The notes below the pieces were generated by a model, which worked only from the letters and a program-made list of their open reading frames with translations, was not told the DNA's origin and did no database searches. Below are positions 23,889 to 26,411 of a DNA stretch of 32,000 nt, piece after piece. The DNA comes from Ignicoccus islandicus DSM 13165 (GTDB taxonomy: Archaea; Thermoproteota; Thermoprotei_A; Sulfolobales; Ignicoccaceae), in the NCBI RefSeq assembly GCF_001481685.1, contig NZ_CP006867.1, forward strand, positions 330,001 through 362,000. The letters are read 5' to 3'. A program made the position numbers and the translations under genes. The stretch's first letter is position 1. Every line of letters begins with the position of its first letter.

Positions 23889-25424
23889 TCACGTTGTTCG
23901 TTTGTATCTATGAAGTGATTCTATTAATACAAGAGATCCGAGAAGGGTTGAAGATATCAAGAGGTACAGCGTAAGTGGGTAGCACCTCAAGGAGCTAGAG
24001 TAAAGGCCGGTAGAACTTTCCTCTCGTAAAGCAACGGCACAACTACCTAGATAAGAGAACTCTGGTATACCTCTCGCAAACGACTTCTCGTAGCCTGGCG
24101 GTAGGTACTTGCCGGAATATATTGGGACCTTGTAATTTACCCTTAGGCTTACGTTTCCGGAGTTAGTGTTGTAATGTACCAAAACTTCCCTATTTAGTAT
24201 TCGAGGGGTCCCGTTCAAGAGTTTGATATCAGAGCTTACGGTAGAAACCTTCACGTTCGTTACGTTGAGTTGCTTCACTAAGTCGAAGTAAACTGGAGCG
24301 GAGCTGGAATAGAAGATAGAGAGGGCTAACGCGACTATTAAAGCTGCCTCGAGTGATTCGACGAACTTTCTCTTCTTTACATATGTTACTGCAAAGCTTA
24401 TCCAAGGTATTACAGACGCTAAGATATAGTGGAGAAATCCCGTTGGAGATATTAAAAGATACTTACACCTCTTGTAATACGCAATAGATAAGGTTAGGGT
24501 AGATAACGTTAAAACTAGTTGAAAAGCCTCAATGGAATAATACCTAATGAGAGCCATCGCAAGCAACGCTATTGATGGAACGAGAACTCCTAGGGAAATT
24601 ACCTCCAACCCTTCAACTAATTTCAAGTAATATAACGAGCTTAAGAGCAGCGTTGCGAATGCTATTCCTAAGGACCTTTGATCAGCGAAGTACGGACTTG
24701 CTATATCGGTCGGAATTAAACGAACTATTGATATAGTAACTAAAGACGCCAATATTATTGAAAGCGTGCTGAGCTTGTCCCTATACAAGTAGTGAATTAC
24801 GAGGGAGAGTACTGATACGAGGTAGGCCGCGTGGAAAATGGAATAAGGGATCGGGATTCCATACGTAGTTAAGTTGTAATACGCAAAGAGAGCTAATGAA
24901 AAGGACGCTAACGAAGCAGACAAGTTTAGTAGAGGGTCTTTCCGAACTGCCAAGTACGAAACGTAGAGGGCTATTGAGAGATGGAATAGAAATAGATAGA
25001 GCGTATCGAACGTACTCCTAATAGTACCATAGCCTATAGGCGGTATCGAAGGGGCGCTGAACATCATTGAAGAGTTTAGACTAAGGTAATTGGACCAATA
25101 AGTCAAAAGGGAAGCGATCAATACGCTAGCTGAAATGGAAAGGGGCAGCTTGCGGAAGTAAGATAGCATTGAGGCGATTAGTGGAACGTAGAACTGAGGG
25201 AGCGTCAGAGCTACGACTACCCTCTCAAGCGGATTTAGGGCGCAGTTAACCCAGTACCATTCGAGCAACGTGGAAACGCGACACGAGAGGAAGTGAAAGA
25301 GCGTCAGAATTGATATCGATAACGGAATTAGGGATAAGTACTTAGATGAATCGAGCTTTCTGAACAAGTAAGCTAGAACGGGTAATGGTATTGAAATAAC
25401 TATGAGAAGTGAGAAAAAATTCAT
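23889..25424 (-). CDS. Polytopic membrane protein (at least 12 TM) with a ~100-aa sequon-rich extracytoplasmic loop and a terminal TM
   Basis: 511 aa, very rich in Ser/Leu/Tyr/Ile. Sequons include NVT, NGT, NVS, NLT and NSS. GGGGAGGT lies about 12 nt upstream of the ATG and only 33 nt after the pilin stop, with no T-tract between. No AglB WWDYG motif was seen. Confidence 0.7.
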   Translation of the reverse strand: MNFFSLLIVISIPLPVLAYLFRKLDSSKYLSLIPLSISILTLFHFLSCRVSTLLEWYWVNCALNPLERVVVALTLPQFYVPLIASMLSYFRKLPLSISASVLIASLLTYWSNYLSLNSSMMFSAPSIPPIGYGTIRSTFDTLYLFLFHLSIALYVSYLAVRKDPLLNLSASLASFSLALFAYYNLTTYGIPIPYSIFHAAYLVSVLSLVIHYLYRDKLSTLSIILASLVTISIVRLIPTDIASPYFADQRSLGIAFATLLLSSLYYLKLVEGLEVISLGVLVPSIALLAMALIRYYSIEAFQLVLTLSTLTLSIAYYKRCKYLLISPTGFLHYILASVIPWISFAVTYVKKRKFVESLEAALIVALALSIFYSSSAPVYFDLVKQLNVTNVKVSTVSSDIKLLNGTPRILNREVLVHYNTNSGNVSLRVNYKVPIYSGKYLPPGYEKSFARGIPEFSYLGSCAVALREESSTGLYSSSLRCYPLTLYLLISSTLLGSLVLIESLHRYKRTT

Positions 25425-25457
25425 TTTTAGTTAAACCTCCCCGAGCCGGTTTTGGCT

Positions 25458-26411
25458 TTACTGTACAGTTAGAGGTACAGTGGTCTCCCAAGTGCTGCCG
25501 TCTTGGAATTGTAGCCTAATGTCAACATTATCCATTACGTTGGGATTGACCTTCTGGCACCATATTACTAAGCTCCAGTCGTCTTGGCCGACCTTGGCTA
25601 GGTCGAAAGTGTCAATTGCTCTTTGTTGGGCGTTGGTACCGTCATGGTATGCTACATTTAGGGTACTGCCAGTCCACCTATCGTACCTTATCACAGCGTT
25701 AGTACTCTTGAAGTTGGTCTCTACCTTGTTAGTGCTTGGGTAAGTCACTTCCCAGACACCAGCTACTATGGTCGCAAACGAGTCGGTAGTGTAAGTGTTG
25801 GTACCATCTGTTGCATAGATGTATGCGGTGGTAGTGCCAGTGGGTGCAGTAATTCCATCCGTTAGATCTGCATCAGTTACTTGACCTTTAGCACCAACTC
25901 CTTGCGTGTTCGCAAAGGCTAATACTATACCTCCCGGAGGTAGTTGATCGTTGCCGTCTAGCTGACCTGCGGTTTGGCCACCAAATCCGGCGAACGCAAT
26001 ACCGTAGGATTGCAATCCTCCAGCAGTACTACCTGTATGCTGGTCGTCTGTGCTTTGTAGGAAGGCTGCGTAGTGGCAGAGTATCCTACCAGCGTAAATT
26101 ACGTCTACGTTGTCGATGGTTACTAGGTTTTGACCAGCTCCAGCGCCGCCTACAGCAGCCGGTGGAGCCTTGAAGGATATTATTAGTACTGGGTAGTCGA
26201 CCTTGAATCCTGCGCCGGTACCGTCACGATAATCACCCATTGCCCAAGTAGCTTGTATTACAGTTAGGGTCTTTCCGGTCACTTGGCTTCCAGCCACGTT
26301 GGCGCTCAGGCTACCTACCCAAGTGTAGAGCAAGACGGCAGCTGCGACGGCGATGAGTATTAGCAGTAGGGTCGCTATAACCGGGGAAACTCCCTTCCTT
26401 AGGGCCTTCAT
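25458..26411 (-). CDS. Archaeal type IV pilin-like protein (class III signal peptide)
   Basis: MKALRKG|VSPVIATLLLILIAVAAAVLLYTWV is a textbook prepilin N-terminus. GGTGAGAG lies upstream of the ATG at 26411, with an alternative ATG at 26423. A ~285-aa Gly/Thr/Ala/Asp-rich domain follows. The track ORF runs on to 26762 only as antisense of aroE. Confidence 0.8.
   Translation of the reverse strand: MKALRKGVSPVIATLLLILIAVAAAVLLYTWVGSLSANVAGSQVTGKTLTVIQATWAMGDYRDGTGAGFKVDYPVLIISFKAPPAAVGGAGAGQNLVTIDNVDVIYAGRILCHYAAFLQSTDDQHTGSTAGGLQSYGIAFAGFGGQTAGQLDGNDQLPPGGIVLAFANTQGVGAKGQVTDADLTDGITAPTGTTTAYIYATDGTNTYTTDSFATIVAGVWEVTYPSTNKVETNFKSTNAVIRYDRWTGSTLNVAYHDGTNAQQRAIDTFDLAKVGQDDWSLVIWCQKVNPNVMDNVDIRLQFQDGSTWETTVPLTVQ

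Follow-up and report, generated by a model that had tools for sequence, protein, structure and literature searches.

The stretch of DNA described here (the window) comprises 32,000 nucleotides (nt) of Ignicoccus islandicus DSM 13165 (contig NZ_CP006867.1, positions 330,001 to 362,000 of the forward strand), and all positions without a locus name refer to it. It contains the gene of an Iho670-type adhesion-fibre subunit, EYM_02110, followed on the same strand by the gene of a polytopic membrane protein, EYM_02105. The pilin is of a known kind; its membrane partner belongs to an undescribed family with a conserved genetic tie to a structurally solved archaeal filament and, in one of two models, an unexpected predicted fold. 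The evidence points to EYM_02105 as a fibre-specific accessory membrane protein whose working surface lies away from the cytoplasm. At about even odds (probability roughly 0.5), it is a non-catalytic dock, primer or anchor for subunits of the Iho670 family. The genes and signals concerned are as follows.

26416..26458, minus strand: putative pilin promoter and leader, read from the sequence
25458..26411, minus strand: EYM_02110, Iho670-type pilin gene, 317-amino-acid precursor (matches to PDB 5KYH and TIGR02537)
25425..25457, minus strand: spacer of 33 nt from the pilin stop to the ATG of the membrane gene, read from the sequence
23889..25424, minus strand: EYM_02105, polytopic membrane protein of 511 amino acids (homologues, AlphaFold model)

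The fibre subunit

The pilin precursor starts with MKALRKG, followed after the cleavage point by VSPVIATLLLILIAVAAAVLLYTWV. This is a class III signal peptide (mature part beginning VSPV) with the cleavage site [KR]G before a hydrophobic residue, and TIGR02537, the N-terminal model for archaellins and type IV pilins, matches it with E = 9e-10. The start at the ATG at 26411, as given in a preliminary description of the window made from its letters alone, is confirmed; it is backed by the TATA box, the leader and the alignments of homologues. The pilin frame stays open for 117 further codons in the 5' direction (26412..26762, minus strand), which yields a 434-amino-acid open reading frame (ORF; 25458..26762) in the mechanical list. 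The extension overlaps the start of aroE (26443..27285, plus strand).

The match to Iho670 (PDB 5KYH) has E = 3.9e-76 and is full-length, with query residues 8-316 aligned to chain residues 1-302, the Ig-like globular domain included. Over the first 25 residues of the mature pilin, the sequence equals that of the Iho670 core, 3J1R. Because of the full-length match EYM_02110 is, as judged from its sequence, the adhesion-fibre subunit of I. islandicus and not a generic crenarchaeal pilin. It is the orthologue of I. hospitalis Iho670 (Igni_0670; 48% identity), and orthologues at 11 other loci share 41-65% identity with it.

Few archaeal type IV filaments have been solved in atomic detail; the Iho670 fibre is one of them. 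Meyer et al. 2014 are said to have described it as crossing two membranes and being anchored below the inner one, reportedly (as cited by others) on a large spherical body beneath the inner membrane. In the literature searched, no protein other than the subunit was found to be tied to the fibre, and the supplements of the 2011 proteome paper hold no entries for Igni_0670, Igni_0671 or Igni_0672.

The membrane protein and its family

By its homologues, the EYM_02105 ORF is a real gene of a very small uncharacterised family. An exhaustive HMMER search among 1.84 billion proteins returned nine true family representatives (at the 50% identity level) and one spurious repeat protein; homologues of EYM_02105 were found with E-values from 1e-43 to 5e-20. 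Members are 511-580 amino acids long and 24-32% identical to EYM_02105; the protein encoded beside the pilin gene at locus L001 (loci carry the prefix L), for example, is 29% identical (E = 1e-34). One cluster holds the I. hospitalis orthologue ABU81851.1/A8AA99, which is only 27% identical and which we infer to be Igni_0671; no mention of Igni_0671 was found in the literature searched. Neither EYM_02105 nor the nine-member profile gave any sequence match in Pfam, NCBIfam or PDB, with thresholds up to E = 10 in the Pfam scan of the nine members and in the PDB profile search. A word-indexed homology search, with the single sequence or with the nine-sequence profile, returned only EYM_02105 itself.

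Invariant in the nine sequences are C48, W56, W58, N60, C61, P129, G131, R136, Y157, G189, R235, Q249, L358, Y372, Y440, P443, C462, R467, C481, P483 and L484. The set includes no Asp, Glu, His or Lys.

EYM_02105 is the shortest member (511 amino acids against 522-580), with deletions in loops L3, L8 and L9. It shares only 27-32% identity with the seven orthologues compared; between these, most values are 29-39%, with one close pair at 77%. EYM_02105 also departs from the consensus at well-kept positions (G62 to A, HP to HY, KYIPPN to KYLPPG). This divergence suggests accelerated or relaxed evolution.

The gene had at first been called compositionally aberrant, with 33-40% GC in its 60-nt lines, a view that does not hold. 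Its GC content is 42.6% (median 60-nt line 43%), against 50.3% for the pilin gene and 46.5% for the window, and GC at third codon positions (GC3) is practically the same in the two genes (47.1% and 47.5%). The gap is confined to codon positions 1 and 2 and is therefore an effect of Leu/Ser/Ile/Tyr versus Gly/Ala/Thr content. A make-up rich in Leu, Ser and Tyr is common to the family, Ser and Tyr being highest in I. islandicus. Horizontal transfer or a compositional anomaly of the membrane gene was rejected on the equal GC3 and the family-wide composition.

Genomic linkage

The DNA around family members and Iho670 homologues was examined, both genes being located by tblastn; sequences below 90% identity were counted as separate lineages. 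In eight of ten pilin lineages the Iho670-type gene is followed immediately, on the same strand, by the membrane gene, so that the check for neighbouring genes suggested in the preliminary description had a positive outcome. The pair is present in I. islandicus, in I. hospitalis (L002), at L001, L006, L009, L010 and L011, and in the clade L008/L012/L015. The flanks vary: aroE and a RIO2 kinase gene in I. islandicus, a Pyr_redox_2 gene upstream in I. hospitalis, L006, L008 and L015, and a thermosome/Cpn60 gene upstream in L009. Adjacency and orientation are kept despite these changes and at pilin divergence down to 42%. A degenerate DNA pattern for the conserved C-x7-WYWxNCG loop of the membrane protein found one further true locus (L012) and one chance match (L013).

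Four loci have a second, divergent Iho670 paralogue directly behind the membrane gene.

L001, 3499..4332, minus strand: second Iho670 paralogue
L002, 9562..10368, plus strand: second Iho670 paralogue
L008, 9574..10419, minus strand: second Iho670 paralogue
L015, 7733..8578, minus strand: second Iho670 paralogue

These paralogues share 22-25% identity with the major subunit and 31-45% between lineages, carry a class III signal of their own (e.g., LKAG followed by ISNIVTELILIAISV), and may be minor or base subunits. Whereas in I. hospitalis a paralogue follows the membrane gene, the I. islandicus locus lacks one, and none was found in the 32-kb window.

At L002, the second paralogue is called as starting within the membrane gene, 86 nt before its end (9562..9647). 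This shared stretch encodes a Gly/Ser-rich disordered tail that has no counterpart in I. islandicus. One of the two boundaries may have been called wrongly; alternatively, translation of the two genes may be coupled.

The two genes are unlinked in some lineages. The Iho670 orthologue of I. pacificus (L014, CP006868; 5001..5915, 60% identical) has no membrane-protein homologue within 5 kb, and a convergent gene for an Fe-S protein begins 5 nt past its stop. At L016 and L017 the next gene on the pilin strand encodes an amino-acid permease. The most divergent member of the membrane-protein family, P0009, sits between ilvC and a PhoU gene, with no pilin gene within 8 kb. Since the P0009 contig (L005, from Logan) and the L016 pilin come from the same sequencing run, SRR33956867, both genes probably persist unlinked in that lineage. 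Every family member examined is located beside an Iho670-type pilin gene or, in this one lineage, occurs in the same sequencing run as one. On these loci the family is restricted to the Iho670-pilin (Ignicoccus-type) lineage, and as far as gene order and homology can tell, the linkage of the membrane gene to the fibre gene is well supported.

EYM_02105 could instead be an unrelated membrane protein, such as a transporter or a lipid-handling protein, which is merely syntenic with the pilin gene in closely related genomes. The unlinked genes of I. pacificus, L016/L017 and the P0009 lineage fit such a reading, as do the terminator-like T-tract and the room for a separate promoter found between the genes in most lineages. 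The membrane protein also evolves faster than the pilin (mean identity 34% versus 54%), with a weak rank correlation of divergence (Spearman 0.21). This alternative is nevertheless unlikely: the arrangement outlasts changes of flanks and considerable pilin divergence, the membrane gene is framed by two pilin paralogues at four loci, no member examined occurs apart from an Iho670-type gene at the level of the locus or the run, no transporter family or fold was matched, and the conserved residues are located in loops and not inside the membrane.

Spacer and transcription signals

A putative TATA-like element, TTATAA, is located at 26453..26458, about 44 nt upstream of the pilin ATG, and a Shine-Dalgarno-like GGTGAG leader at 26416..26421. 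Most of the orthologous pilin genes shown likewise have a TATA-like box, some 40 nt upstream, together with a GAGTGAGA-type leader. In the spacer of 33 nt, GGGGAGGT occupies 25435..25442 and ends 10 nt before the ATG of the membrane gene; no T-tract, terminator-like site or hairpin was found in the spacer. The length of the spacer, the presence of GGGGAGGT and the lack of a T-tract agree with the first description.

All nine other loci with the gene pair have a longer spacer (73-190 nt) with a T6-T7 tract 10-45 nt past the pilin stop; in I. hospitalis the spacer measures 95 nt and has the tract. Such a layout is usual where a filament subunit is strongly expressed and the gene behind it depends on low read-through or on a promoter of its own. 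With a compacted spacer and no tract, I. islandicus is likely to co-transcribe EYM_02110 and EYM_02105. The earlier proposal of a common transcript is thus plausible for I. islandicus and does not extend to the other loci; by the comparison of spacers, tight co-transcription is a peculiarity of I. islandicus and not a conserved design.

Predicted structure and topology

AlphaFold2 was run with the nine-sequence alignment. The EYM_02105 model has a mean predicted local distance difference test (pLDDT) score of 84.6 and a predicted template modelling (pTM) score of 0.88; the model of P0008, an I. hospitalis-type homologue, has the same layout (pLDDT 78.4, pTM 0.84). AlphaFold and hydropathy together give 14 membrane helices, 13 of them in residues 1-372 and the last at 485-510. 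The following parts of the protein are referred to below.

25239..25283, minus strand: loop L2, residues 48-62, C-x7-W-[YF]-W-x-N-C, consensus C..TL.EWYWLNCG
23973..24308, minus strand: beta-rich domain of about 110 amino acids, residues 373-484, between the penultimate and the last transmembrane (TM) helix (AlphaFold strands)
23895..23972, minus strand: C-terminal TM helix, residues 485-510, followed by the basic tail HRYKRTT (AlphaFold, hydropathy)

Loop L2 is the most conserved segment (0.71), with C48, W56, W58, N60 and C61 invariant. The beta-rich domain has strands at 389-403, 406-420, 423-436, 460-465 and 478-482 and holds the invariant pair C462/C481, a KY(I/L)PP motif, and N-x-S/T sequons at N387, N404 and N424. 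Of the original outline, the count of at least 12 TM helices, the loop of about 100 amino acids and the final TM helix stand. A loop dense in sequons does not: in EYM_02105 the domain has three, against 1.5 expected (P = 0.18), and enrichment is clear only across the family (26 observed versus 10 expected).

Conservation is concentrated in loops L2, L4, L6 and L8 (0.58-0.71) and is lower in the alternating K/R-rich loops (0.28-0.53); conserved residues lie in loops and not within the membrane. By the positive-inside rule, the K/R-rich loops are presumably cytoplasmic and L2, L4, L6 and L8 outside. The loop between TM1 and TM2, of six residues and K/R-rich, would accordingly be cytoplasmic. Although 14 helices make an even number, the loop ahead of helix 13 (KKRK) and the tail at the C-terminus are both strongly basic. 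The sequon enrichment in the family, the invariant cysteine pair and the basic C-terminal tails favour a location of the beta-rich domain outside. As the cytoplasmic loops of EYM_02105 have only 2-8 residues, the protein cannot itself be the large spherical anchoring body beneath the inner membrane.

Comparison with pilin-modifying enzymes and other families

In Pseudomonas aeruginosa, TfpO/PilO (Wzy_C-type, as PglL) and TfpW (GT-C) are encoded 3' of pilA. EYM_02105 resembles them in being a polytopic membrane protein encoded directly downstream of a major type IV pilin gene and in the same orientation. It differs from TfpO/PilO, PglL and TfpW in having neither a Wzy_C or GT-C domain or fold nor an invariant acidic or histidine residue, and its pilin partner, unlike those of TfpO/PilO and TfpW, has no conserved acceptor region. 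With AglB/STT3 the family shares many TM helices followed by a domain that is probably outside; it lacks WWDYG and has an extra C-terminal TM helix after the domain. We know of no identified enzyme for the O-glycosylation of archaeal pilins.

A pilin-modifying enzyme that transfers a glycan or another group from a lipid-linked donor onto the Iho670-type subunit at the outer membrane face, as TfpO/PilO, PglL and TfpW do, is the reading closest to the glycosyltransferase or ligase proposed in the preliminary description. It is suggested by a gene order like that of P. aeruginosa, with the membrane gene 3' of the gene for the major pilin, and by the conserved outward loops, whose invariant R136, R235 and R467 and aromatic residues are reminiscent of binders of polyprenyl-phosphate donors. 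The pilins also contain 14-19% Ser plus Thr. The Thr cluster of the I. islandicus pilin, present as first reported, is however located in a lineage-specific hypervariable insert that several orthologues lack even though they keep the membrane gene, and N-x-S/T sequons are absent from this pilin. A GT-C module would not fit the N-out topology inferred here or the short TM1-TM2 loop. Iho670 of I. hospitalis was reported as negative in the periodic acid-Schiff (PAS) stain, which can miss glycans and give false negatives (PMC4187195).

The similarity searches speak in the same direction. For GT-C (PMT, ArnT, TfpW, STT3/AglB), no Pfam or NCBIfam match was obtained with the nine members at E up to 10, and the PDB profile search was empty. 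Foldseek with the two models listed AglB/OST chains at a probability of at most 0.16 and a TM-score (template modelling score) of at most 0.17; with the EYM_02105 model, the AglB chains had a probability of 0.04 and a TM-score of 0.13. The catalytic layout of GT-C is likewise not recognised, as there is no invariant Asp or Glu and the TM1-TM2 loop has six residues instead of being a long outward loop. The absence of WWDYG noted at the start is confirmed by a motif search for WWD[YWF]G throughout the family. A Wzy_C/WaaL ligase was rejected with no PF04932 match and no invariant His, although three invariant arginines are present; no WaaL-type structure is among the 50 Foldseek matches listed per model. 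The fold comparison with Wzy_C/ligase, GT-C and AglB, which had been named as a check of the glycosyltransferase proposal and, if negative, as a ground for dropping it, thus gave no similarity with either model. Taken with the missing invariant Asp, Glu and His, the missing pilin sequon, the non-conserved Thr cluster and the negative stain, this makes a modifying enzyme rather unlikely and removes EYM_02105 as a tempting candidate for the archaeal pilin O-glycosylation enzyme.

Two other components of type IV filament systems were considered and rejected. Like PilC, TadBC and FlaJ (T2SSF), EYM_02105 is a polytopic membrane protein whose gene is linked to that of a type IV filament, but it has no PF00482 match, the hhalign probability against the T2SSF protein of the window itself is 0.1%, and the true T2SSF genes are located elsewhere in the window. 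A prepilin peptidase of the A24 type (PibD/FlaK/EppA) was rejected on the lack of an invariant Asp (GxGD-type) and of any Peptidase_A24 match.

Likeness to CcmF

Foldseek found no PDB match at E = 1e-3 or better for the EYM_02105 model; the best were short matches in which the beta-rich domain aligned with the NTF2-like domain at the N-terminus of PBP2a (E = 0.36). The P0008 model gave a single significant full-length match, to the System I holocytochrome c synthase (haem lyase) CcmF of Thermus thermophilus (6ZMQ; E = 1.1e-4, probability 1.00), with a TM-score of 0.51/0.48 over 619 columns; the next-best TM-score among the 50 matches listed was 0.17. In CcmF and in the EYM_02105 family alike, a TM helix starts at residue 1-2, the helices number 13-15, and the last two of them enclose a basic domain of about 90-105 amino acids. 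They differ in helix number (14 rather than 15 in the family), in genomic context and in distribution, and the family has neither the WWD motif (WGxxWxWD) nor the conserved TM or periplasmic histidines.

It is very improbable that EYM_02105 is a divergent CcmF-type haem-handling protein, acting in c-type cytochrome maturation or on haem or a tetrapyrrole, with its pilin adjacency incidental or due to shared envelope biogenesis. The full-length 6ZMQ match, the matching layout of a C-terminal outward domain and last TM helix, and the Trp-rich conserved outward loop would agree with such a function, as would the c-type cytochromes made by Ignicoccus (PMC4429474). The residues that E. coli CcmF uses (WWD at residue 236; H173, H261, H303 and H491) are nevertheless not conserved. 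The best-kept histidines of the family, H198 and H332, occur in only seven of nine members, and the loop in the serial position of the WWD loop has only seven residues (counted by eye on hydropathy profiles, not by structural alignment). The Pfam models Cytochrom_C_asm and CcmF_C gave no match to the family at E up to 10. Probabilities by hhalign were 0.5% against E. coli CcmF and 0.1% against an alignment of seven CcmF/NrfE sequences taken from E. coli, plasmids and PDB. I. hospitalis is, moreover, reported to encode CcmB, CcmC, CcmE and CcmF (PMC4429474), whereas the EYM_02105 family is confined to lineages with Iho670-type pilins. The CcmF-like scaffold of the model is a lead of moderate strength and not a family membership; if the fold holds, it would be an example of haem-lyase architecture reused for another role.

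Proposed role of EYM_02105

In the proposed mechanism, a strongly expressed Iho670-type subunit gene would be followed by the gene of a lineage-specific accessory membrane protein that works with the fibre. The outward loops, probably together with the beta-rich domain, would form a binding site for membrane-embedded or freshly extruded subunits of the Iho670 family; Trp, Tyr, Phe and Pro abound in this putative site, which also has three invariant arginines and two invariant cysteine pairs. Since no Asp, Glu or His is invariant, EYM_02105 is probably not catalytic. Far less of the membrane protein than of the pilin would be made, which in most lineages would be due to the T-tract after the pilin gene. 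In I. islandicus, it would probably be translated from the pilin transcript (no tract, 33-nt spacer, Shine-Dalgarno-like GGAGGT). The scaffold may derive from, or converge on, the CcmF architecture without its haem-handling residues. EYM_02105 in I. islandicus and ABU81851.1 (presumably Igni_0671) in I. hospitalis are thus concrete candidates for a partner of the fibre.

Several observations weigh against a dock, primer or anchor of this kind. The pilin gene of I. pacificus lacks a membrane-protein homologue nearby, and the two genes are not neighbours in the L016/L017 clade or at the P0009 locus. The three invariant arginines near the outer face would also suit an enzyme with a lipid-phosphate donor. 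The even helix count (14) conflicts with the positive-inside rule, and the side of the beta-rich domain is therefore inferred only. As to the scaffold, 6ZMQ is not among the 50 matches listed for the EYM_02105 model, so that the CcmF match comes from one of two models, and the hhalign probabilities are low.

To our knowledge, the Ignicoccus-type archaea are the only archaea with an outer cellular membrane. A CcmF-like scaffold free of haem ligands might have been recruited as a filament partner, perhaps as a collar or passage for the Iho670 fibre where it crosses a membrane; we regard this as quite unlikely. Such a protein would be a functional counterpart, of unrelated fold, of the bacterial secretin/alignment complex.

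Other features of the window

The type IV assembly genes of the window are located 14 kb from the pilin and its membrane partner. Their positions, as first given, are confirmed, and the pair is a unit separate from them.

8252..9943, plus strand: T2SSE ATPase (PF00437, E = 9e-33)
9940..10920, plus strand: first T2SSF platform gene (PF00482, E = 1e-6)
10914..11864, plus strand: second T2SSF platform gene (PF00482, E = 2e-8)

The platform protein is split into two slightly overlapping genes downstream of the ATPase gene, each with one T2SSF domain, in a TadB/TadC-like manner. Five ORFs of 126-317 amino acids (27352..27933, 12499..13137 and 13382..14335 on the plus strand; 6607..6987 and 7013..7396 on the minus strand) have no Pfam match, the first of them no NCBIfam match either, and none shows a class III signal by the pattern used. 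Scans of the window for tRNA genes and Rfam families found nothing. The gene at 4863..6218 on the minus strand encodes a predicted membrane protein of 451 amino acids that falls into DUF2070 (E = 8e-15), an uncharacterised family, and a gene for an MFS transporter (7083..8228) is located just upstream of the T2SSE ATPase gene.

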